Shown here one piece after another: positions 14,063 to 61,292 of a stretch of 64,000 nt of DNA. The notes beneath the pieces are model-generated. The model was not told the DNA's origin, did not search any database, and saw only the letters and a list, made by a program, of their open reading frames with translations. A program made the position numbers and the translations under genes. Numbering within the stretch: the stretch's first letter is position 1; each line of letters begins with the position of its first letter. This DNA is from Schmidtea polychroa (lineage: Eukaryota), in the NCBI GenBank assembly GCA_044892525.1, contig CM097887.1, positions 2,108,001 to 2,172,000 on the forward strand, read 5' to 3'.

Positions 14063-14484
14063 TTTGTTTTTAGTTCAATTATTATTATATGTAATTGATT
14101 CATTAAAAATTATTGCAATGTCTTTTTTATGATGAATTTTCTGTGATAAGAATGCCCATACATGGCATAGATAAGAGGAGAGAAATATAATTAATTATTA
14201 ATTTAATTAATAACATAATTAATTTTACTTTAATTATTGTGAAACAGAGTAAAACATTTTAGACGATTATATTTAACATTTAAATTTCCTTTAGATATAA
14301 AATAACATAAAAAACTGGTATTTTCCAATTAATTATTAGCAAACAAAATTGAAATTTATAAAAATCGATTATGAAATTGTTTAAATACTCACTACAATTA
14401 ATTTACTTCTTTCAAATTTCAATGTAAATTAATTTCAAAATTTAATTTTAAATATTTAGTCAATATTTAGATCAGTTTATAAAA

Positions 14485-16604
14485 ATGGTTAAAATCTGTG
14501 TTGTTGGGTGCTTACATGGTGAGTTAGACAAAATGTACGATGATGTTAGAGCAACCGAATTAAAATACGATTTTAAAACCGACATAGTATTATGTTGTGG
14601 TGATTTTCAGTCAATTAGAAATGAATCCGATTTAACTGTTATGAGTGCACCATTGAAATATCGTAGACTTGGTGATTTTTGGAAATATTATGCTTCAGAA
14701 AAATCTGTTCCATATTTAACTGTCTTCGTTGGAGGTAATCATGAAGCATCAAACTATCTTCAAGAATTGCCTTATGGTGGCTGGGTTGCTCCTGATGTAT
14801 ACTATATGGGTTATGCCGGTGTCTTGAATTTTATGGGATTAAGAATAGTAGGATTCTCGGGAATTTATAAACGTCATGATTATTACACCGGTCACCATGA
14901 GCATGCTCCGTATGATGACCAGTCAAAGCGCACTGCATATCATACAAGAAATATTGAAGCTTTTCGTTTAAAACAACTTAAAAAACCAGTCGATATTGTT
15001 TTGAGTCACGATTGGCCAAGAGGAATTTATAATTACAACCCAACTCATATAGGGCAGCTAATGAAAGAAAAACCGTATTTTATCGATGAAATTCGAGCAA
15101 ATACCCTTGGAAATCCAGCTGCAGAGGAGATATTAATGCATTTGAAACCTCGATATTGGTTTGCAGCACATCACCATTGCAAATTTGCCGCTCTCGTTCA
15201 ATTTCACAGCGCCGAAAACCCACAGAAAACAACAAAATTTCTCGCATTGGATAAATGTTTACCGTTCAAAAATTATATGCAATTCATCGACATTGAACCG
15301 CAACTGGAAATCGAACTGTGTAATGAAAAGCATTTGTCTCTTGATCCGGAATGGTTGTGCGTTCTCAGGGCAACCAATCATCTGATGTCGATTGCGCGTA
15401 CCACTTGCATCATGCCAATCGCAACCAATGAGGAAAGGTTCGCAGTTATTATCATAAATTATTATTAATCAATAATTTTATTAATTATTTTATTGATATT
15501 GTCTATTTATTATTATTAACTGATATTTATTATTAATAGTCATTATACATAAATAAAAAATTAATAATTTAAAAATATAATTATATTAATATTTAATTTA
15601 TTATTAAAAATTAATGATTAAAAAATATTTTTCATTTTTATTTCCATATTTAATAATTAGAATTTAATATTAATTAAAATAACAAATTATTTATTTCTAA
15701 TTTTTAAAATTATTATTCTATTAATTTTTTAATATTTAATAATTAAAAAAAATTAATTAATAATTAAATAATATATTTTTTATTTTTATTAATTATTTTA
15801 TTAATAGTTATTATAAACAAATAAAAAATAATAATTTAAATATTGAATTATTTACTTCTAATTTTTAAAATTTATTCTATTAATATTTTTAATATTTAAT
15901 AATTAATACAAATTAATAAAAAATAATAATTAAAAAATATTAATTTTATTACAAATTTTATTATTTTTTGAATTTATTGATTTGTCTAATTTATATTTTA
16001 TGATTTATTTTTAATTGGCTGATAAATAAAACCAATCTATAGGTCCGATTTTACTGCCACCGAGGAAGATCTGAAAGAATTGTCTGATTTATTTAACAAT
16101 CAATTCAAAATACCGAACAATTTTGAAGTGACGGCGCCAGTGCACCACGAGGAGTATGAGGATGTGTCGAGGCTCCCGAAACCGGTAGCGATTCACACCA
16201 ATCCACAGACAGATCTGATGAGTGCCATGTTGGAATTGACGAATCCGAATGCGGAATTCCTGGGCAAATCTTGCTCGCTTTTGGAAATTAGCAGAAAACT
16301 GAAGGAATCGAAAGAATCCGATGAGGAGAGTTCTGGTAGCGATGGTGGCGAATCATCTTGTGGTGGAGAGGATGATAATTGCGCTGCCGTGCCGGAGCTG
16401 ATGGGGGACGGAGCGAAGGGCAATAATCCAGAGGAGATCGATATAGATATATGTGATGAGGAGGGGGAGGGGGAGAACGCAATGTCCAATGACAACGGCA
16501 GCGAACCATTTGAGCAATACGATCCTGCGGATTACCCAGCCGATCAGAAGGAGGACAATGATGATGATGATGACGGGTATTGTCCCGCTGCTCCCTTTGT
16601 ATGA
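14485..16604 (+). CDS. DBR1: Lariat debranching enzyme; exons 14485-15437 and 16043-16604
   Basis: Metallophosphoesterase motifs GCLHG, CGDFQ, GGNHE, LSHDWP, WFAAHHH, TKFLALDKCLP. A phase-2 GT-AG intron restores NEER|SDFTATEEDL..FKIPNNF, the DBR1 C-terminal domain, followed by an acidic tail. Confidence 0.96.
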
Positions 16605-30209: not shown

Positions 30210-33200
30210 GGTTGTTAATATCGGTTTTTCGAGCAATCCGATTATCGTTTGTATAAATCCGATTTTAAACCGATTATCGTTTGCACTTTGCATAACCAAA
30301 GCTACTTACATTATTACTATTCACGCACGTGTATAGTATAATTAGTTTTATTCAAAGTTTATACCACACACAAGGAGAATATGAACTGACTGTTTATGTA
30401 AAAAGTTAAAGCATATAAGTAAATTTGTTTTCAATTTCTTCGGTAATTTTCCCTGTATATACTAAAGTATAAATCAAAATAAAACTTTCCGGTGCTGCGG
30501 CGGCCTTATTTTAAAATTAAACATAAACATATCGAAACCATAGATATCAAAAACAAAGATTCCAAAGTGTAAACATTTAAAAGTAAGTACTAAATTCGAT
30601 TTTATTTTTAAATATCAGACAAGTCCTGGTTCATATTCAAAAAGACCAAAGATTCTGCATGATCTGGAAGGAGCCGGTTACGAAGCTTGGTTATCAGACG
30701 TCCAGTGGCCGAAAATAATCGTTCCGATTGCACTGAGGTTGCAGGAATGCATAAGAACTTCCGGGCAAGAATAGCTGTTTTGGGGAAAAGTTTCATATTA
30801 TGTTTCCACCACTCCAGGGCTGTTTCACTTGAGTTTGTTGACCATGATGATTTGACGTAATATTCAAAGTCGGATTCCTCTGGCGCCTGTTGTGCTGCAC
30901 TATCACCAAGGAGAAACATAACTGCATCATGATTTGGTCGTGATCTTTTAGTTAGTGGGATCATGTTATCTTCATCCTGACTCGTCTTCGGCTGTTCGGG
31001 GCAATCTGGCAGCTGTCTGAGGAGATGACGGACATTTTCATACACCAGCTTTTTGAAATCGTCCGGAAATCCAGGAAGATGCTTATACATCGGATCGAGA
31101 ATTGATGCAACAACGCATTCGTTTTTTGCTGTTTCATTATTTTCTAATCCAAAACGACGTGAAATATTCTTAGAAAGATCTCTCTTAAATTCACCCATAA
31201 TGTCAGAATCTTCTTCTTTAATGGTTAAATGATTTTTCACGAGTCCCCATAACATGGGAAAAACACAAGAGGCTGATGGCTGGCTTTCGGCTGACATGAC
31301 GGACGGCACGATCTGCAACGCTTTTAAAACAGGGAGCAATTCAGTCATCAGTTGCCAATAATCGTCCTTCATGCCCAACGTTTTGGCATCGTTCAATTTC
31401 ACCACGTTTTTGTTGCTCAATACTGCAACTACTGGCCATCTCAGTTCTACTAGTCGTTCAAACATGTCATAGACGCTGTTCCAACGAGTCTTACAGTGCT
31501 GAATAAGTTTTAGTGGCGTTTTATCCTTGTCCATGGACAACTGTCTTTTCAGGAGCTCCCCCGTTGCCATTAGGCTATGTGAGAAATGTCCGACTAGTCG
31601 TGCTGCAGCTGATATACATTTGGAAATTTGATGATCCGTGACAACATGGGAGCCCATTGCATTATTGATGCAAAGTTGCAATTTATGCGCCGCACAGTGA
31701 ACGTCAAACCATCCATTGAGATTGCCTGTATGATTGATGTTGGATGCACCATCATGGACACATGCAACAATTTTTTCTTTTATTGACCATTCATCAGCTA
31801 TACTACATAGGTGGTCAGCAATGACGGCTTGTGTGTGGCGTTGAGTCATCAGAATTGTTCCAAGAACAGGCGTCATCATATAGCTTCATTGGTGACACTA
31901 GTCCAGATGTCGGTAGTGTTGACATTTTCATGGATATATTTCGACATTTTGACCACTAAATTATTTTTCATTGCTGTTAGTCGTGCTGTCATCGTCTGAC
32001 GACACGGAGGACGATATCCTGGCTCCACTATCGCCATCAATTCACGGAAGGATTTCGATTCCACGAGCGAAATTGCCAACATATTTTCGGAAATCAATCT
32101 CGCAACAGCAGCCGTAATTTTTTCCTGTTTACTACTCGGACAATTTCTTTGTGTTGTAATCAATGCAGTCAATCGTGTTTGAGTATTTGAAGATGTTGTT
32201 AATCCACCATGTTTGCTACGCAAATGTGCATGCAAACCAGTCGTAGTACCTCCACTCCTACTTATTTGCTGTGCACAGAGCTTACATTGTGCCATCGTCG
32301 CCGAAATTTTATCAAAATTGTCCCAGACGTCAGACTTATTTATACGGAAACCCATAAATTTAACCTGATTTTGTATTGATTTAGATAATATAAAAAATGT
32401 TTATTGAATATTACGTAATATTCAAACTAAACCGCAATTTTCAATTATATGGATTAATAACAGCTACTACGAGAGCAACTAACTGAATGAATGGAAATTA
32501 TATAACAGTTTATATGTTTATAGTAGATTTGAACCATGGATTGGACTTTCCAAAATCTTGTCATAAATTAAAATCCCGAAAATCAATTTACTTCGACCTG
32601 AGCAGCCTCTTAGACATTGTCAAAAGATCAACAAACTGAATAAATTTGAGAATGGTCGTCACCCAAACTTGAAGTTTGTCCTAGTGTCCAACTCTCTTCC
32701 ATATTTCAATGGGTAAACAACCAAACATTATGATTCGAGGAATGGCACATGTCTTTCGATCTCTTTACATCTGGCTTTCATGAAGATGATGCGGTATGCA
32801 ATTCAGTTTATTCTGGTTTTAAGTTAAAACCAGAATAAACTTTTAACCGGTTCGCAGATGCAAGATATCAGATTGCAAAATAGACCTTCACGGACTAAAC
32901 ACAAAATCGCCGACCTCGGCCACATCTAGTCCCTGTCAAGGAGGTTAATAGCTAAGCTTCTGTTATGGACTGCAGTAATCAAATCTTTGGTGGCCGATTT
33001 CGGCAACAAATATCAGGTTGCCAAACAAAACCGGCAAAATGCAAATACTAAAACACACAACCACAACCTTGGCCTCAGCTGGTCCCGATTAAAAGATTTA
33101 ATGGGCACAGTACCTGTCAGGGGCTGTATAAACAAATCAGCGGTTGACGATTACGGACATCAACTGACAAATAACTGGTCAGTCGGTGAGATATGTTGGA

Positions 33201-46283: not shown

Positions 46284-49200
46284 ATGAAAATATTTGTGAC
46301 AACTGAGAGAGATTCCAAAGATGGCCTTGAGATGGAGGTTGATGAATATTCACAAGGAGAGAATATTAAATATTATTTCAATGAAATTCATCAAGAAGAT
46401 CAAACATGGACAAAAGATTATTACCGATTAATATATAAAAATATTATCATAAATGATCACGACTTCATCAGGAAGTATAAAATATCAGATGGAGATAAGA
46501 TCTGGCATGGGAAAATTGAGAACTATTTGGAAAGGTTGATCAAGTATATGAGATATCATTTGATAATTTCCATTGATTCCAGTGATGATGTAATTGTGGA
46601 ATTATTCCTTGCAGGGACCATACCTAATTGGGTTTGGTTAATTATCAAGCTTTATGATTCTATTGACTCGATCAGATCAATTATTGAACGGTTTCAACCA
46701 GAAATTATTCATATTTGGAATAGCAAAGGTGATCAAATGATAGGCAATCAATCAATCACAGATATCAATGAGGATGGATATTATCGATTGATTGTGAGGT
46801 GAATTTTGATTGGTTGGTTGATTGTGAGGTGAATATTGATTGATTGTGAGGGAATATTGATTGGTTGGTTGTGAGGGGATATTGATTGGTTGTGAGGGGA
46901 ATATTGATTGGTTGGTTGATTGTGAGGGGATATTGATTGGTTGTGGGGAATATTGATTGGTTGTGAGGTGAATATTGATTGGTTGTGAGGTGAATATTGA
47001 TTGGTTGATTGTGTTGGATATTGATTGGTTGTGAGGGGAATATTGATTGGTTGATTGTGTTGGATATTGATTGGTTGATTGTGAGGGGATATCGATTGAT
47101 TGTGAGGTGAATATTGATTGGTTGTGAGGGGAATATTGATTGGTTGGTTGTGTTGGATATTGAGTGGTTGTGTTGGATATTGAGTGGTTGTGAGGTGAAT
47201 TTTGATTGGTTGGTTGATTGTGAGGTGAATATTGATTGATTGTGAGGGAATATTGATTGGTTGATTGTGAGGGGATATTGATTGGTTGTGGGGAATATTG
47301 ATTGGTTGTGAGGTGAATATTGATTGGTTGTGAGGGGAATATTGATTGGTTGGTTGATTGTGAGGGGATATTGATTGATTGTGAGGAATATTGATTGGTT
47401 GTGAGGTGAATATTGATTGGTTGTGAGGTGAATATTGATTGGTTGATTGTGTTGGATATTGATTGGTTGTGAGGGGAATATTGATTGGTTGATTGTGTTG
47501 GATATTGATTGGTTGATTGTGAGGGGATATCGATTGATTGTGAGGTGAATATTGATTGGTTGTGAGGGGATATTGGTTGGTTGTGAGGGGAATATTGATT
47601 GGTTGGTTGTGTTGGATATTGAGTGGTTGTGAGGTGAATATTGATTGGTTGGTTGTGTTGGATATTGATTGGTCGTGAGGGGATATTGATTGATTGTGAG
47701 GTGAATATTGATTGGTCGTGATGGGATATTGATTGTGAGGGGAATATTGATTGATTGTGAGGTGAATATTGATTGGTTGGTTGATTGTGAGGGGAATATT
47801 GATTGATTGTGAGGGGATATTGATTGATTGTGAGGGGTTATTGATTGATTGTGAGGGGATATTGATTGATTGTGAGGGGTTATTGATTGATTGTGAGGGG
47901 TTATTGATTGATTGGTTGTGAGGGGATATTGATTAGTTGATTGGGGTGAATTTTGATTGGTTGTGAGGGGATAATGATTGGTTGGTTGTGTTGGATATTG
48001 ATTGGTTGTGAGTGGATATTGATTGGTTGGTTGTGAATATTGATTGGTTGTGTAGTGAATATTGATTGGTTGGTTGATTGCGAGGGGATATTGATTGATT
48101 GTGAAGGGTTATTGATTGATTGGTTGTGAGGGGATATTGATTGGTTATGAGGTGAATATTGATTGGTTGTGAGGTGAATATTGATTGGTTATGAGGTGAA
48201 TATTGATTGGTTATGAGGTGAATATTGATTGGTTGGTTGATTGTGAGGGGATATTGATTGATTGTGAGGGGAATATTGATTGATTGTGAGGGGAATATTG
48301 ATTGATTGTGAGGTGAATATTGATTGGTTGGTTGTGAGGGGATATTGATTGGTTGATTGGGGTGAATTTTGATTGGTTGTGAGGGGATATTGATTGGTTG
48401 GTTGTGTTGGATATTGATTGGTTGGTTGTGAATATTGATTGGTTGTGTAGTGAATATTGATTGGTTGGTTGATTGCGAGGGGATATTGATTGATTAAGAG
48501 GGGAATATTGATTGATTGTGAAGGGTTATTGATTGATTGGTTGTGAGGGGATATTGATTGGTTATGAGGTGAATATTGATTGGTTGTGAGGTGAATATTG
48601 ATTTGTTATCAGGTGAATATTGATTGGTTGGTTGATTGTGAGGGGATATTGATTGATTGTGAGGGGATATTGATTGGTTATGAGGTGAATATTGATTGGT
48701 TGTGAGGTGAATATTGATTGGTTGGTTGTGTCGGATATTGAGTGGTTGTGAGGGGATATTGATTGGTTGTGAGGTGAATATTGATTGGTTGTGAGGGGAA
48801 TATTGATTGTGAGGTGAATATTAATTGATTGTGAGGTGATATTGAATGGTTGATTGTGAATATTGATTGGTAGATTGTGAGTTGAATATTGATTGATTGT
48901 GAGATGAATATTGATATGTTGTGAGGGGAATATTGATTGGTTGTGAGGGGAATATTGATTGGTTGTGAGGGGAATATTGATTGATTGTGAGATGAATATT
49001 GATATGTTGTGAGGGGAATATTGATTGGTTGTGAGGGGAATATTGATTGGTTGATTGTGTTGGATATTGATTGGTTGTGAGAGGAATATTGATTGGTAAC
49101 TAGACGTTGCACATAAATTTATTACACATAAATGAAAATTAATGTCCATTAATATTAGGCTGATTATCTTGCTCTGGAATCTAAGCAAAGTTATTATTTA

Positions 49201-52200: not shown

Positions 52201-54972
52201 GATAAATGTCTTTCTATTGAATTTCGAGCATTTGTAAGCTCTGGACGATAATTGAAAGGTTACCATAAATAATCAAAATTTGTAATTGTTTAATCTATTT
52301 CTGCAATTGTAATCAAATCAATAAAGGCGAGATTACATTGTGATTGTGCTAATCAATAAAGGCGAGATTACATTGTGATTGTGCTAATCAATAACTAATT
52401 ACCTTCCTGCGAGTTTTTTATTGCTATAATTACTATTGTTGTTAATGTGGATAATATTAATATTATTAAAGACAAGTATATAACAAATAGGAAAGGTTTG
52501 GGAACCGCTGAATGATTTGGCTGACTCTAATAATCATAATTTGCTTCAGATTGATGAATTCCTTCCTTTTATTATTTCGTTCGGATTCTCAGCTTGATGA
52601 TTGGCTAGGTAGCTAGTAAGATCTGATTCGATAAGCACATAGATATTGATTAAATCAGTGATCACCATCGATCGGCAGTCATCGTAATAATAAATGGGGA
52701 AACACATGAATTGAAAGTTCAAACTAATCCGCAAAATATTAGCGAATCAAAACTTGAGATTGCGCGCAATTGTGGTGTAGACATTCAGGATTTGTATTGT
52801 ATTCATTTGGAAGATAATATACAACCGAATGATGAAGATCCGTTTCAAGATGGAGGAATTATCTTTGAAATAATGAAAAGGTTAATTTGATTAGATGAAG
52901 CTTTAATTGATTAAGTATATTTGTCATTATAATTTAGAATAGAAAGCTTTGATGTAGGTAAAGAAATAGCAAGAGGGGGATTCGGTATTGTTTTTCTTTG
53001 CCAGGAAAGAATATCTGGAAAACAGTTCATTATAAAAAAGTCTATTGACAAGAAATCAAGTTTTTACCGGGATATTTACATCAGCAATCATTTGAATGGA
53101 GTAGATAAACTTGTGAGTGGGTTAGACATAGTGAGAGATCATAAAGAAGAGAGCATCTTTTTGGCCATGCAATATATGCCAAGGGTATCCTTAACATTTC
53201 TCATTTATCCATATCAATTATATATCAAAAATTAAAAAATTAAAAATTAAAAAATAGGAAATATTATTTGGGTAATTAAAATAAAATATAAATAGAATAT
53301 AATTAAACCAATAAATTTATTATAAAATGCGAAATAAATTTATTTTTCCCCAACAACAATTATTAAATGCAATAATGATCAAATTCACTTGACAAAGGCA
53401 GTGCCGAAAATTCGTGAGTATCAACAAACATGGATATATTACCGATTTATGGTCGTTAAGCTCTCTTTTCAATAAATTCTATATATATGCATTGTTGGGC
53501 ATTTTGTGCAAGTCGGTGTAACTCTGACTCCTTTGTGTCCTTTTATTAAGAAAATCCAACAACCCAACACAACAATATTTACTCGTAATTACCACAATTA
53601 CACTTTTATTTATTACACATTTTAATGAAACAATTCCAGTTTACACCACTTTAAATAACTCTTTGTTCTGCAATCTTTTAAATTTCAACCTGAATCTTGC
53701 GCAGGGACAAACTTTCCAATGGCAGATCTCCCTTTCTGGCACGCTAGATTCAAAATGATGTGATTATCACTAATGTTAAATGCGCTTTTGCTCCCTTTCA
53801 TTGTAATATATCTCTTATTTCTTCGACCAACTGTAATTCTGTTTACTTGACGGTAGTTTTCATCTAGTAATTATATTATCTCCTTATCAAATTACTTTTG
53901 GCAACTTCCCCTTGCCGTCGGCTAATTAAAATCCATCTACCTAGTTAAATTGACTATTCGAGTCCTCTCATACTGTTCGGGTTTAGTTTTTTTTTAATTA
54001 ATTTTAATTTTTTGTAAATATTTCCTTCTACGGACACTCTTTAACTTTATTTTTTATTAGTTTTGAACTCATTTCATTCGTCGGCATTCGCACATACCAG
54101 TTTCCTCCAGAAAATATTCATTTTTAATTTTCAATTAATATATTTGTACTTTAAATTATTACTGTGAATTTGATGTTTTTTATTGATTCACCTTTTTTTG
54201 ATATATTTACTGATTTATGGTCCTTCTAGCTCTTTGTAATAAATACTTAGTGGAAAAGAAATCAGTGGTGAAATTGTAAAAAATAATTCTTATAAATATG
54301 CCATTGTCAGGGATCACTTACGGAATACATTGAGCAATGCATAAAGCAATGGAAAGGGATACAGGAAAAGGCTGTTGTCAAGATTTCTTATCAAATCCTC
54401 ACACAAATTAATGAAATTCACCAATGCAAAGTTATCCATTGCGACATCAAACGTTTGACGTTGTTAAAATAAATTTTATTTTTTAATTTTGGTTTTTCAG
54501 CGGACAATATTGTTTTTGATGGAAAGGGTAACGCAAAATTGATCGATTACGGACTAGCCAAATACTTGAAAGGAATGGAAAGGAAAGATGAGTCTAGGAA
54601 ACGTAAAGCATCTTCTCCTGGAACTATTTACTACTTAGCACCTGAGATATTTAGTGGAGAATTATATTCATACAAATCTGATATTTGGTCATTTGGAATG
54701 GTGTTAGTTGAGATGGTCACAGGCATATTGATGGATAATTTATCATTGATAATGTTGAGATTGTAGGTAAACCTCCATTTCACTGGGCAGGAATTGGACG
54801 GGTGGTCTTGGAACTTAAAAAGATGAAAAAATTTAAATTCAAACCAATCAAACCTATTTCCAAAGAATTGAACGAATTTATCAACTCATGTTTGACTGTG
54901 AATCCAAATGAGAGGCCAACTGGTGAAGATTTGATGAGATCGGAATTGTTTATTCATTCTTTCTACAAATAA
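46284..54972 (+). CDS. Putative 13-exon ubiquitin-like-domain Ser/Thr protein kinase (~713 aa); exons 46284-46798, 49640-49726, 49778-49852, 50194-50364, 50408-50446, 50566-50643, 50693-50764, 52550-52615, 52659-52880, 52938-53184, 54311-54452, 54501-54722, 54767-54972
   Basis: Exon 1 is ubiquitin-like (MKIFV..LEMEVD..ENIK..YRLIYKN..KYKISDGDKI). Eight consecutive symmetric phase-2 exons keep the frame open. Kinase motifs: ARGGFG, FIIKK, HCDIKPDNI, DYG, GTIYYLAPE, DIWSFG, PNERPT. The kinase part is high confidence; its fusion to the 5' part is moderate, and it could be two genes with the first ending at TAA 50828. Confidence 0.65.
46790..49097. repeat. ~2.3 kb G/T-rich compound minisatellite (~17-26 bp units, gaatattgattggttgtgaggt-type) with higher-order duplications
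   Basis: About 100 variable units, strongly C-poor on the + strand. The block at ~47900-48120 recurs at ~48330-48560. Confidence 0.97.
49260..49530 (-). pseudogene. MULE/Mutator transposase C-terminal relic
   Basis: CYNSTLAGNRRTNNAIEGWHSCF..HH, matching the RTNN.VEGWH..F...HP motif. Confidence 0.8.
49870..50183. repeat. (AAT)n / aataataatc low-complexity tract inside an intron
   Basis: Directly visible. It lies between donor 49853 and acceptor 50193. Confidence 0.9.
50865..51439. mobile_element. 575 bp non-autonomous piggyBac-type element
   Basis: Perfect 14 bp TIR ccacttgccgggcg, flanked by TTAA at 50861-50864 and 51440-51443. Confidence 0.92.
51462..51690 (-). pseudogene. Dienelactone hydrolase / CMBL-like N-terminal fragment
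   Basis: IKTLNGTEINTV..KNGLILVYDIFGFNVSQTRRTA resembles the V(Y/Q)DIFG motif of this family. Stops lie upstream and no nucleophile region follows. Confidence 0.55.
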
Positions 54973-56551
54973 CACACCTCATCTGTTAATATTTTATTTA
55001 TCGCTCTTTGGAATACATCAGATGCTGCACCGTGAGAATCTTTACTATCCGAATCTCGTGCTAAACTCTTCTTTACCTATTGGTATTTGATAGCTTCCAT
55101 TGAAGAGATGAAGTCCCATGAAATACTTTGATTTATCCATCATGATGTTCATAATGTTCATTGGTTGATGATATTGGAGATATAGCTCTTTCTATTTGCC
55201 ATTTAGCGCTCTCTAATCTAAACTGTAAATTATACACTCATACAAATATGGTAGGGTAATGTGTGGACCCGGGAACAAAGAACTATTATGTAATCGATGA
55301 CGTCAAAAAGGAAATTACGCCATACCTCCTACCCAGGAGAGGGAGTATTTTTTTAAATTAAGTAATAAAGAACTATTATATAACAAAATCATAGTACGTA
55401 ACAAAGACATAATATGTAATCATCAATTTAAACAAAAAACTATTACATAACAAAGACATTTTAAGAAACAAAGACACATGACTCATCATAATTAATAAAT
55501 ATATTTTAAAAACATATTTTGACGCTAAAGTTGACTTAACAAAGATATAATTATTGCACATACTTTGCACATACTTTGAATTATTATTATTATTATATAT
55601 AGTCTGAGTTTATCCGACAAGATAAAGAAATCCGACAATTTATAAAGAAATAAATAAAATTACCTAGAGGAAGATCGCCATGACAAACGGGACGATCTAT
55701 TGGAACTCAGAAAAGAAAACAGAAGTAAAAAGAAACTAAAAATGAGAAAGATAAAGGAAATAAAAAGAATCAAACAGGAAAATGAAAACCAAGGTCAGTA
55801 CTAATTAATTAGTACAAAAAGGAAAAATAATTTTGAAATCAGGGAAAAGGGAAAACAACTTGACAGCTGTCAGAGATAAAAATGGGACAGTCGGGAAAAG
55901 TAGGAGAAGGAAAATGGAAAAACACTTGATTATCTGAAGTGTCCCAAGAGAAGGGAACTATATAAGGGAAAACTGGTGAACATTAAATGAGAACAAAATT
56001 AGAAGAAAAATTAGAGACAAAGTGACGCGAAATTGAAAACGATTTGGAAGACGATTTGAGAGACAATTTGAGAGACGATTTGAGAGATAAAATTATTGGA
56101 GGGAGCTAGACGTTGGACGAAACGTTGTTGGACAAACGACTGTCAAAAACAATTCTAAAGGAAATAATTGTGGAAAATAATTATTGGAGAAGAGTTGAAG
56201 AAAGGAATTAGTTGAAAAATAAACGAAAAGAAGTTATTTGATTATTTGAATAAAGTTGTGAAGAAAGTCAAAGAGGACAACCAGCTCAAAATCCCAGTTT
56301 AGAAACCAATCAGTAATTTGTGATCTTTTAATGCGGTATTATACATAAGTGCTATTCCTCACCGAGTGTTGTAATAAGCATTGTATAGTCACCAAGCAGA
56401 GTGTTGAATTGATTGTCAGTGTGAAAATAAAGTGTATTTGTGATTATCAATAAAGATTTCTGTTGTCAAGTGTTATTTGTGAATCATATAAAGACACACT
56501 TGGAGTCAGAGCAACATTTAAAATTATCACCAACTCAAAAACCCAACAATA

Positions 56552-56785
56552 TTCTGTCCCCCTAAGGGTACTGATCGTAAGGGTATTGGTCGTAAGGGTA
56601 ATGCTCACAAAGGTACTGCTCACAAAAGTACTGCTCACAGTCAACATGTCGTAAATTATTATTATTTTCAAATACAAGTTCAAAGTATTATTATTATTAT
56701 ATATAGCCTGAGTTTATCCGACAAGATATTCTGTCCCCCTAAGGGTACTGCTCGTAAAGGTACTGGTCGCAAAGGTACTGCTAAA
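56552..56785. repeat. Duplicated cassette with 15 bp repeats (aagggtactgctcgc-type)
   Basis: ttctgtccccctaagggtact.. occurs at 56552 and 56729. The flank tatag.ctgagtttatccgacaagata occurs at ~55598 and ~56702. Confidence 0.8.
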
Positions 56786-56834
56786 AATATTCAAGGCAAT
56801 AAAATCAATACATTTATTAAATAATTTAATCACA

Positions 56835-59800
56835 TCATCGAAAATAATCATGTCCAAAATAATTATCATCTGCTGGATCATGAAAATCATCTGGATCATC
56901 TGCCGAGACAGGTTCTGTTGAATCTATGAATATATCGGTGTCACCACCCCTATAATAGCCATATGCCAAATTTTGATTTTTATCCACCCAATTTCGCTTA
57001 TCATCTCTAATTTTCATGGTTCTTTTATTATTTTTTATACTATAAAGTTGGTGATTCTTCGATGTTATTCAAAACTGAAGGACTGTGTATATTTTATCGT
57101 TTAAGTAACAATATAGATACGACTGATGTGTTAATCCAGTATCTTTCATACTAATCCCTTTAGCCTTCATACTTTCCTCATCACCCATTAAACTGTAACA
57201 TTTAGGTCTCAAGAACACCCAATCTTTATATAATAGTCCTTTATTCTCGTCTTTGAATTTACCAATGACAGAATCAAGGTTCCTACAATATAAAAAATGA
57301 TTTGGGTCATAATTCGAAGTGTCTAATAATTGATCTCTAATCATTGCAGATAAAAAAATGTCAAGACTACAATGTTTAATTTCCAAGAAGAAGGAATCTG
57401 TGTCCCCAGCAACAATATTAATTTCGCAGTTGAATTCGTCGCGATATTTTTGCAACTCTTCATACTGCAGCTAGTACATCCTAAGTTTGGATAAATCTAG
57501 TACAGTTTGACCAATGTAACTAGGTCTATCTAAACATACTGTATCCTTCCTCAATAAAACCGAAATCAGGTCATCATCGATTTTCGAGGATTTACGAAAA
57601 GTCGGTTTCGAACAGAATGTTAATAATTTCTGTGAAGAATTACACAGACGTAAATTAATACGTTTTTAAAGATTTTCAATAGTCTTCCCGTAAAGACTGT
57701 TGTTTAATAATTTATAAAAGTTTTGTCAAGTTTATTTGTCGACGCTGCTCGTAACGCCGTATTTGTGTTAATATAATTTTTGAAAATTCTATCTTGTTTA
57801 AATTTAATTGCTCTGTGTTTTTGATATTTTAACACCTAATTTAATAAATATTTACAGAAGCCTCCAATGAAGAACGTAGTTCCTCCTGGGGCTGTGTGTA
57901 AGCAACAGCTTCTCTATTTTCGAACCGGGTACACACATCTTTTCAGCGGCAACGGGAAGATAATCCAGTTTATGGTGTATTGACGTTGGTATTTCTAAAT
58001 CCACTTCTATGGTATAACCATAATCAAGCAGATCTAAATCTACCGTTGTTCATTCAACAATTATATTATTTAATAAATTATCATCTGTAACCCATTTAAA
58101 GTTACTGCATGCTAAAGGTTGACTTAAAGCCCAACCGTATAAATTATTTATATCTATGTAAAGCAAAGCGGTATCCGGGTCTGTTTTTACATAGTGTTTA
58201 TTTACAAAAGTTAGTCCACCACGGATACCGCCCTCAAAAAAGTTATACATCTCCATATCGGTGAGGAGCTCAATTGGAGAGTTTAAAGTTAATAATGCGG
58301 AATTCCAAGACATATCTGAAATCCCTAAGAAATTTAATGGCTCTAGCCAGTTATGAGCAATGGACTTAGCTCTAAATTGTTGGAAAAAATCAGCTAAAAG
58401 GAAAACATCAAGTTTTAAATAAACCATCATGTAATCTAAAAGTGAAGTACATTAGGTTTCAAGCCAAATTCTCTGAGCTGTCTCATATTCAGCAGGCGTC
58501 ACATCTTTCCAAATAGGAGGTAACTGATGAGTGTTATGCAAAACCTCTAAGGAAGTTGCGGCATCATAAGGAAAAATTCCCTTTGCATTGATTATTGTAC
58601 CCTGAAATTCTGATTCGGTCAAGGGTAAAGATGATAAAGTTTGGACAGCATTATTTAAGACTCGCTGACAAATTGATAAGAGTCTATAAATTTAACGGTT
58701 AATGAGTCAATCCTAGCAAAAAGACTAAGGAATTTCTCGCTGGTTAAAGGAATACAGCTAATATTCCATGAATGATATTTTGAAAGGCCAAATTTCAAGA
58801 TATGATGCAGATCATAATCCTTTAAATTATGAAATACTACAGGAAGGGTATGTCTAATTTGCCTCGACAGATTACAAGTTGTACAAGCGGCACCAAGATA
58901 TAGACCGGTAAAATGGTCATGGTCCCTAACTGGACTAGATAAATGTTTATTGCACAAATAGCATGATGTGCTGTTTTCAAACATTAATTGTTGTTCATCT
59001 GTAATTATCATTTTCGTTTGATAATTTTTATAATAATAAGGAGTTACAATATATTTCCCTATCATTTCAATTTCAGTAAGAAATTGATCGACGCAATTGA
59101 ACGACTTATAAATTTTTACGCCCGTAAAATTATTAATAAAAGCATACCAGCAGGTGACGTTGAAAGTATCGAGTGTCCTTAGGTAAGATAACCTCAAAGT
59201 CAGCATAAATAACAAAGGGAAGAGTGACTGTTTTACTCCAATCAATAAATTCTAAATATTTATTTTTAGGCAATGTGTACAAGGTAGTACCAAGCTGATT
59301 TTTATCACAAAGACCTCTATGTCTATTAAAAGCGTCATCATTCCTAAAACCGTTTAAACACCTAGGACACCACTGACTGCAAATCCTAACAGGAGTGATT
59401 GAACTATTCCTACAATTAAGGAATCTATTTAGGTCTGTGATTGCAAGATAATGATAATTATCATTCTTTTCAATTAATAATAAATTGATAGGTATGGCTC
59501 CTACTATCTTACTCCTGTATATTATATCAATAACTGCATCTTCATCAGAAATGTCTATCAAAGCCTTTTCGTTGTAAGTAAGAACATTAATACTATAACC
59601 TGGATTTTGTTGTTCAAATTTACTTATATTTGATAGTTTCATCGGCATATCATTAGGATCAAATTTAATATTAGAAAGATTGTATGAATTAGGGCGATTT
59701 CTATATTGCCTATTTATACTGTCATATTTAATAATTGATAAAAAACTATACAAGAAGCAGAAGTAGTCATTATTAACTAAATTAATGAGACAGCTTAAGT

Positions 59801-60782
59801 TTCTTAAAAATTTTGGGGTTTCAATAAAACTTCTGACACTTAACTGACTTATTTCAGCAAATTTAGTCAGAACAAAGCTTATGTATTCTATTTTATTGAT
59901 ATTCCAATTACTACCTTTCTCATTAATTTTAATTATTTTTTCATTTAAACGAGCAATACCTTCGTCAATGAATGTATCACTCCAAACTCAGGCGGAATTC
60001 GAGATTACAAAAGATTGTAACTCATCATCTTTAATGAATTCCACCTTTAGACAAAATTGAATTTTACATGATTTCAATTTATTTACATAGAAATTTAATT
60101 TATTTTATTAAAATGTCTGGTACAGAGACCGTTTTTAAATCTAAAGACGAAACGTCCATTTTTAACATAATATGATTAATATTTAAATCACTGGTGACAT
60201 CTACGACACCAAAACCTATTTGATTAATATTATTATAATTATTATAATTATTATTACTATTATTATAATTAAAGTTTAATTAATTAAAGTTTAAGATTTT
60301 TTTCATAAGATATTATTCAATATTGTCTGTTAAATAGTATCTAATAAGAAAACATCATATAATTTAACTAATATATTTAAATAGTACCATAAAAATAATA
60401 AAAGCATTAAATTATGATTTGAAATAATATAAAAATTATTAAAATTATTATTAAAATCTTCTTTTCATAATCGACTTTTCATATAAATTATTATAATTTC
60501 TTCACATAATAAAATCTTTTCATAATCTTCATAAATAATTACATATTATTCTCATAAATACATCTTTTCATAAATCTTCTTTTCATATAAATTTTCATTA
60601 TTATTATTTAAAAATAAATCTTTTCATATATAATTTACAAATTTTCATTATTAAAAAAAAATTAAAAAAATTATAACAATAAATAAACACTTACATTTTG
60701 TTCCTTTCGAAAGAAATTTCCCAGCATCAGAACCAGCAGAATCAGCAGAAGTATATATTACGTTTCGATCTAAAAGCCAAAT

Positions 60783-60813
<31 letters not shown>

Positions 60814-60971
60814 GTAAACTATTACCATTTATTCTATTCAAGTCTACAGCTTGTCCGACGATATTCATATTAATTTGTTGATTAGAACCTAATAATCATA
60901 TAAAAGATAATAAATTTACCATTAATTCCTCCAACGATTTTTCCGTTAACTCTTTAAATATTGTTGTTCAT
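56835..60971 (-). pseudogene. PolB: Protein-primed family-B DNA polymerase with embedded endonuclease-VII-like motif; multiple stops and frameshifts; main body 60215-56835 plus probable upstream exons 60971-60920, 60888-60826, 60769-60695
   Basis: PFVIYADFE (ExoI), CYLC..RDHDHFTG..GAACTTCN, VVFHNLKDYD (ExoII), FIDSYQF, YLKLDV (ExoIII), YIDINNLYG (A), KLLNNSLYGKT (B), GDTDS (C), KAKGI, DDKR. Confidence 0.93.
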
Positions 60972-61292
60972 GTTGTTGTCTATAATAATTTTTTAAAAGT
61001 GATGAAAAAATGAAAGTGTAGACTATATAAAAGAGATATTACAAGTTTTATTAACCGACCAATGAAAATAGAGATAGGATAGCAAAAGATACTGCATGTT
61101 TGATTATACAAAGCAGTTACTATATGACTAAATAATGACCTACAAGTCCATGTCTTTATTACTCAGTGCTTTGTTACTTTGCACTGTACATGCACTGAAC
61201 ATGTAATAGTATGACATAATAATATTTTTAAACATAAATAATAATATTTAACAAATAATAATAATATTTTTAAAATTAATTATATATCTTAA

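Follow-up and report, generated by a model that had tools for sequence, protein, structure and literature searches.

A predicted spliced start for the DNA polymerase gene of an abundant Polinton family in Schmidtea polychroa

Where does the DNA polymerase gene of a Polinton begin? The question is raised by a window of 64,000 nucleotides (nt) from Schmidtea polychroa (assembly GCA_044892525.1, contig CM097887.1, positions 2,108,001 to 2,172,000 of the forward strand), which holds a decayed element of this kind with a chain of short exon-like blocks ahead of its family B polymerase. A first-pass annotation, made from the letters alone, had proposed that three such blocks, exons A, B and C, supply the start codon and are spliced, the last of them across an intron of 479 nt, to an exon D beginning at 60215, much as in adenoviruses. 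Comparison with other copies of the element bears out the leader and displaces its junction. The reading that we favour, with a probability of roughly 0.88, is that the polymerase would start in three small leader exons separated by host-type introns, that the third acceptor would lie well upstream of the one first proposed, and that the predicted joint would complete a split cysteine codon.

In the window, exons A to C, introns 1 and 2, the third donor at 60694 and the TATA-like and CCAAT motifs are all where they had been placed (Table 1), the exons having a G+C content of 29-36% and the introns one of 12-13%. This copy is dead. It has a stop at codon 6, its frame shifts near 60105 and one more stop follows in the next segment; it lacks residues 1-234 of a natural sister frame, and its polymerase body matches one sister copy at 88-93% identity in four pieces, the fragments still being recognized by Pfam DNA_pol_B_2 and Endonuclease_7. 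A lone chain of exons and introns in A/T-rich DNA proves little; it is comparison with sister copies that lifts the leader well above chance.

The sister set comprised 29 loci selected by their leader (of 184 matches) and 40 selected by their polymerase (of 136 other matches), that is 69 in all, and exons A to C were located in 60 of these, to which the following counts refer. Nine loci were dropped: four with partial matches, one without exon C and one with a 5-nt gap in exon A among them, and five in which no leader lies upstream on the sense strand. The segment occurs in 60 sister copies and so is not a host insertion private to the window. The length of exon A is 1 modulo 3 in 59 copies, that of exon B a multiple of three in 59, and that of exon C, which varies from 60 to 75 nt, a multiple of three in all 60. 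Donors read GT in 60, 59 and 57 copies for introns 1, 2 and 3, and acceptors AG in 58 copies for intron 1 and again for intron 2. With phases and splice dinucleotides kept in this way, the proposal that exons A to C form the coding 5′ end of the polymerase gene holds. The leader is open in 57 of the 60 copies, so that the early TAA of the window is damage specific to this copy; read without splicing, 59 of the 60 hit a stop within 32 codons. Intron 1 ranges over 31-67 nt, mostly by steps of 8 nt, and is 47 nt long in 33 of the 35 polymerase-selected copies; intron 2 measures 44-140 nt. The GT..AG ends, the host-like size and the kept phase are traits of U2-type introns; a host kinase gene in the window has introns of 44, 48 and 57 nt, all three longer than the 31-nt intron 1 found there. 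As a separate observation, retention of intron 2 (60825-60770) would carry exons A and B into a leucine-rich hydrophobic tail stopping at the acceptor, which is probably a by-product of the TTA repeat.

The third intron is another matter. Most sister copies have a polymerase frame that is already open about 230 codons upstream of the proposed exon D, and a phase-1 acceptor, found in 57 of the 60 copies and reading AG in 54 of the 57, lies 540-1,140 nt upstream of the AG at 60216. Intron 3 is 380-1,552 nt long in these 57 copies, its lengths being spread 20, 19 and 18 over the three phases. Between the upstream acceptor and the AG at 60216 the distance is a multiple of three in 40 of 48 copies; between exon C and the same AG it has no in-frame pattern. 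When distinct lengths are counted, multiples of three make up 17 of 52 for intron 3 and 25 of 32 for the part that follows the acceptor (Fisher p = 1e-4). Splicing at the upstream acceptor would leave 18 of 35 whole-gene loci open for at least 1,400 codons, in one continuous frame without any sign of separate acceptors for a terminal protein and a polymerase. As for the AG at 60216, it falls in Ile-Gly codons, and Gln-Ile-Gly is conserved in P0003, a database protein 57% identical; placed as it is inside conserved coding codons of the sister open frame, it was rejected as the real third acceptor. The methionine of the former exon D was likewise rejected as a conserved start, being aligned to leucine in P0003. 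The 479 nt of the window are a composite of an intron remnant (60694-60286) and a piece of coding linker (60271-60216), joined by a deletion that removed the true acceptor. Hence the leader would join a Cys/His module, lost from the window copy, and the spliced text originally written across the exon D junction does not stand.

The same layout extends beyond the family. A search of the genome with a distant relative gave 39 matches; the 20 that were fetched belong to four other families at 47-51% identity. At the homologous place all 20 loci have AG|G, directly preceded by a stop in two families, and conserved coding sequence follows it and precedes the first methionine. This coding sequence upstream of the methionine, seen in five families with that of the window, speaks against the leader being a separate small gene, an alternative that the first-pass annotation had kept. 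Full leader chains were found in 11 of the 20 loci, with two to five exons, short introns of 43-192 nt and a last intron of 965-1,960 nt; homologous exons were present in six of the remaining nine, fragments in one, and none in two. All 11 chains end in a split cysteine codon, made of the last leader base and the first two bases of the large exon, and the same holds for 56 of 57 copies in the window's family. A CCAAT followed by a TATA lies upstream of the ATG of the leader in three of the four other families. In exon 2 of two of them the proportion of synonymous differences (pS) is 0.83-0.93 against 0.12-0.17 for non-synonymous ones (pN), in the spliced frame only, the other frames containing stops; between families, third positions are in excess (10/13, 11/15 and 12/15 differences). 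A tyrosine, two cysteines and a methionine, upstream of or at the first methionine of the large exon, are invariant in 11 of 11 aligned sequences.

Metagenomes add relatives in which the same start is not interrupted. A profile scan gave 80 loci, seven of which scored above 15 bits with the profile of the N-terminal module. In four loci (L131, L135, L136 and L137) the pattern Cys-x5/6-Cys-x4/5-His-x-Cys-x3-Met directly follows the ATG, without an intron, 30-42 nt below a TATA box. Since the first cysteine is contiguous in these unspliced relatives, the split cysteine of the present families can be taken as a true member of the motif, and the invariant methionine as internal. Other loci (L132, L133/L144, which are one element, L134 and L151) have phase-1 introns of 44-53 nt in the N-terminal region, downstream of the module in L144 and L151; that intron positions differ between lineages points to repeated gain or loss. 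Single-protein scans and a profile scan of viral contigs gave no related loci, unlike the metagenome scan, and a protein search with the N-terminal module alone found no match among 2 candidates and no annotated spliced gene model. In L136 (740-1000), inspection by eye shows a small frame that has a TATA of its own, what looks like one intron, and a stop, just upstream of the unspliced polymerase start; it is possible that such a frame was the source of the leader.

The Cys/His ligand pattern is conserved across the families and the metagenome relatives, and it is from this pattern that the module is predicted to bind zinc. Its structural model has a mean predicted local distance difference test (pLDDT) score of 80.5. 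The module has no sequence match in the PDB, no Pfam family below E 0.02 and no significant structure match, its resemblance to C2H2 fingers being weak (E at least 1.3, Z at most 2.6); these results establish neither a novel fold nor a familiar one.

A second core gene is interrupted. The integrase gene, lost from the window's own copy, is present in all four sister copies examined. In 35 of 36 integrase loci (L093-L096, L098, L099, L101-L130) a GT..AG segment of (ATT)n, 24-180 nt long, sits within the TDLG/KEF motif of the catalytic core. All four loci belonging to the window's family have their frame broken by it; the remaining 31, picked by their identity to one family, have a segment whose length is a multiple of three and which contains no stop.

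How might such a gene work? Host RNA polymerase II would read it from the CCAAT/TATA promoter, and leader and large exon would, as we infer, be spliced together in the cell by the host spliceosome. The three phase-1 exons would thus provide the start codon and a low-complexity leader of about 60 residues, the last base of which would be the first of the cysteine codon heading the predicted zinc-binding module. In a published model the polymerase is preceded by a terminal-protein domain and an OTU-type protease, cleavage taking place between them (bioRxiv 10.1101/2024.03.18.585575), and this single chain of terminal protein, vOTU and polymerase appears to fit the length and motifs found here. 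The product would then be one polyprotein made of leader, Cys/His module, Asn-rich linker, terminal-protein domain, OTU-type protease, exonuclease and polymerase, and a cut following the terminal-protein domain would keep leader and module attached to the priming protein that caps the DNA ends. The leader sequence itself would matter little, its job being mainly to bring the start codon and to complete the module. The introns were probably gained in a flexible N-terminal region during long residence in the nucleus. A further step, which we consider rather doubtful, would make host splicing a gate for replication and integration, since both the zinc module and the integrase core need intron removal; it could act as a tissue or stage switch, with a leader perhaps derived from a fused upstream gene. 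The P element has an intron of this kind, removed in the germline, as a splicing switch.

Several facts weigh against a spliced start. Dropping damaged loci makes the counts lean upward, and many copies are young, near-identical and not independent. Intron 2 lengths also vary mostly by 3-nt steps, so that they do not discriminate. The codon-position bias expected of coding exons, clear in exon 2 of the two other families, is not matched in the window's own, where amino-acid constraint on the leader is weak (among shared variants, 23 non-synonymous over 125 sites and 8 synonymous over 34). In the other families exon borders and motifs were chosen by eye, nine of the 20 loci have no full chain by those motifs, and in one family the first intron is in phase 0, the remaining introns of the chains being in phase 1. 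Then comes RNA. Among the sequencing runs listed as containing this sequence none is recorded as RNA, which speaks neither for nor against splicing. No splice joint was found in any of the four runs aligned to exons A to C, in which only introns 1 and 2 were covered and none of which was shown to be RNA. Three of the four look like DNA, with adapter letters and very high depth; in the run guessed as RNA, the listed pieces retain introns 1 and 2 together with the third donor. These pieces may be DNA or unspliced transcripts of dead copies, which makes this a weak test. Finally, the first methionine of the large exon is invariant, which keeps an internal start in play.

This last point feeds the alternative that survives best, improbable as it is: exons A to C would be a separate small spliced gene, or a non-essential upstream frame, and the polymerase would start at the invariant methionine, 18 codons into the large exon. 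That methionine is the called start of P0002, P0003, P0008 and P0009, leader peptides differ strongly between families, and the small frame of L136 offers an apparent precedent. Yet conserved Tyr, Cys, His and Cys codons stand upstream of the methionine with no earlier in-frame methionine to start them; the first cysteine, which here exists only across the splice junction, belongs in the unspliced relatives to a protein in which the same methionine is internal; and no alternative last exon was seen for a separate gene. Less probable again is a splice from exon C to the AG at 60216, as sole or alternative acceptor, giving a polymerase devoid of the Cys/His module. This AG has the right phase, is present in 45 of 48 copies and is the only candidate left in the window copy, but it lies about 225 conserved codons into the open frame and is the poorest of the four acceptors in pyrimidines (0.40 as against 0.50-0.75); as sole acceptor it is excluded. 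That the blocks are chance, promoter or untranslated A/T-rich sequence, alike only because the copies are young, has in its favour an upstream promoter DNA conserved as much as the exons, an ungapped identity in introns 1 and 2 (0.91-0.96) close to that of the exons (0.93-0.94) and the lack of spliced RNA in the four runs, but it is largely refuted by exon lengths that change in frame, by the third-position excess and by the same layout with its split cysteine in families at 47-51% identity.

Adenoviruses come first to mind. They make the terminal protein precursor (pTP) and the polymerase from shared 5′ exons with different acceptors, and two coding exons are spliced together for the pTP of turkey haemorrhagic enteritis virus (PMC11304566); the available part of PMC7851563 has nothing on a start-codon exon. 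The likeness lies in replication proteins that take their 5′ part from upstream exons, and is an analogy only. In the E2B region of human adenovirus, three codons come from a tiny exon. By contrast, the leader described here has 26-160 residues on two to five coding exons according to family, and it would head one predicted polyprotein, with no sign of a second product, where adenoviruses obtain two proteins by choice of acceptor. Of the adenovirus-like strategy suggested by the first-pass annotation, the start codon brought by an upstream exon stands as a prediction; common strategy does not, because close relatives start the same module unspliced. No shared origin with adenoviruses is thereby shown, and the arrangement looks rather like intron gain within Polinton lineages.

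Among Polintons or Mavericks (adintoviruses) with OTU and pfam03175 ‘Alpha’ polymerase, the resemblance covers several features (PMC8502044; bioRxiv 10.1101/2024.03.18.585575): a protein-primed family B polymerase, an rve integrase with chromodomain, an A32-like ATPase, an adenain-like protease, terminal inverted repeats and a 6-bp target-site duplication are common to both. The genes of vertebrate Mavericks are reported to be intron-free, in agreement with Kapitonov and Jurka 2006 (PMC8097293), and a nematode Maverick has introns in its cargo genes only, with intron-free core genes (bioRxiv 10.1101/2022.07.12.499685). Here, unlike in those elements, both polymerase and integrase have predicted host-type introns, and the polymerase has a Cys/His module added at its N terminus. 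Polinton core genes are described as free of introns, a trait that stands outside the formal definition of the group, and the genes inferred here depart from it. Introns as such do occur in the group, as introners in Polinton-like viruses of dinoflagellates (PMC12166617) and as group I introns in those of cryptophytes (PMC12220804), but these are mobile introners, mostly young host-derived insertions, or self-splicing. The last leader intron, unlike them, is found at a single constant place in families that are about 50% identical, and it would have to be removed for the product to be made. Word searches of the available text of PMC8502044, PMC4028283, PMC6431247, PMC5718144, bioRxiv 10.1101/2023.08.22.554363 and 10.1101/2024.03.25.586562 gave no spliced Polinton core gene. 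In the literature searched we found no description of spliceosomal introns in a Polinton polymerase or integrase, although an earlier one is possible, the founding papers of 2006-2007, Haapa-Paananen 2014, Repbase and supplements lying outside this scope.

What would follow is of some practical import. Polinton core genes have been described, and searched for, as intron-free frames; annotation based on frames would truncate the start of the polymerase and call the integrase broken, so that working elements would be miscounted as decayed. A recently expanded lineage with a polymerase and an integrase that both rely on the host spliceosome has to be expressed in the nucleus, under promoters of host type. 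It would provide a fixed case of intron gain in a virus-like element, dated by family, and RNA junctions would be a simple readout of where and when these elements are active.

That the element is a Polinton can be established piece by piece. It is one copy of a very abundant family in a genome of 781 Mb, with at least 184 DNA matches to the leader region and at least 137 scored polymerase matches, many of the latter in open frames of 1,350-1,410 codons. It starts at 55250 and ends in the neighbouring stretch, L091, with an inverted repeat between both ends. A 6-bp target-site duplication flanks it and three of the four sister copies checked at both ends, and CT terminates 35 of 37 element ends found among 40 loci. 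PF03175 matches a window fragment at E 2.8e-5, under the curated cut-off; the sister polymerase frame is 57% identical across 1,120 residues to P0003, which carries this domain. Matches to rve and to a chromodomain in related elements are just under cut-offs, a packaging ATPase (Pox_A32) was found in the window's element and an adenain-like protease (Peptidase_C5) in a related one. Polymerase, integrase, ATPase, protease, terminal inverted repeats together with the 6-bp duplication thus place it with the Polintons/Mavericks; for one further defining feature, candidate frames gave no Pfam match.

Table 1. Features of the Polinton copy in the 64,000-nt window (window coordinates).
Feature	Position	Strand	Remarks
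Exon A with ATG start codon	60920..60971	minus	52 nt; bears copy-specific stop
Intron 1, phase 1	60889..60919	minus	31 nt, GTAAAT..TTAG
Exon B	60826..60888	minus	63 nt
Intron 2, phase 1	60770..60825	minus	56 nt, GTAATA..TTTTAG
Exon C	60695..60769	minus	75 nt; last base is predicted first base of split Cys codon
5′ remnant of intron 3, donor GTAAGT at 60694, acceptor gone	60286..60694	minus	sister-copy match stops at 60286
Internal-deletion junction	60272..60285	not assigned	true third acceptor and about 225 first codons of the large exon removed
Coding Asn-rich linker, first annotated as end of intron 3	60216..60271	minus	within sister-copy open frame
Decayed protein-primed family B polymerase body	56838..60215	minus	several frame changes and stops
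TATA-like box	61023..61029	minus	seen in sequence; aligned in sister copies
Reverse CCAAT box (ATTGG), likely polymerase promoter	61059..61063	minus	seen in sequence; its region shares 87-97% identity in 29 sister loci
6-bp target-site duplication (55244-55249) and left element tip	55244..55275	not assigned	same 6 bp past far tip in L091

Some observations concern the element and its relatives at large. Just past the window (L091:1160-1741, plus strand) it encodes a short homologue of the TATA-binding protein (Pfam TBP, E 4e-11), likewise found in another family, and several Polinton genes have a TATAAAC-like box. The far inverted repeat (L091:6386-7794 versus window 55250-57460) takes in the last 210 or so polymerase codons, and L032 and L037 have an inverted C-terminal piece of the polymerase as well. 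Polymerase genes are also found paired head-to-head a few kb apart (G000 C3:33377211/33380236, C4:82983116/82988092, C1:79517630/79521784; L068), one pair having two diverging leaders, which suggests elements rearranged by fold-back. Sister elements hold a Bcl-2-like frame (L094:3330-3659, plus strand; Pfam E 8e-4, under cut-off), and a Penelope-like insertion with reverse transcriptase and GIY-YIG (L091:3158-5589, plus strand; weak Pfam matches) lies within the window's element.

Elsewhere in the window there are a host gene for the lariat debranching enzyme DBR1 (14452-16604, plus strand), a hAT transposase with a BED finger (30608-32400, minus strand), a G-rich repeat with strong strand bias (46700-49200, GC skew 0.98) and, in the host protein kinase gene, an apparent 44-nt GC-AG intron (54723-54766).
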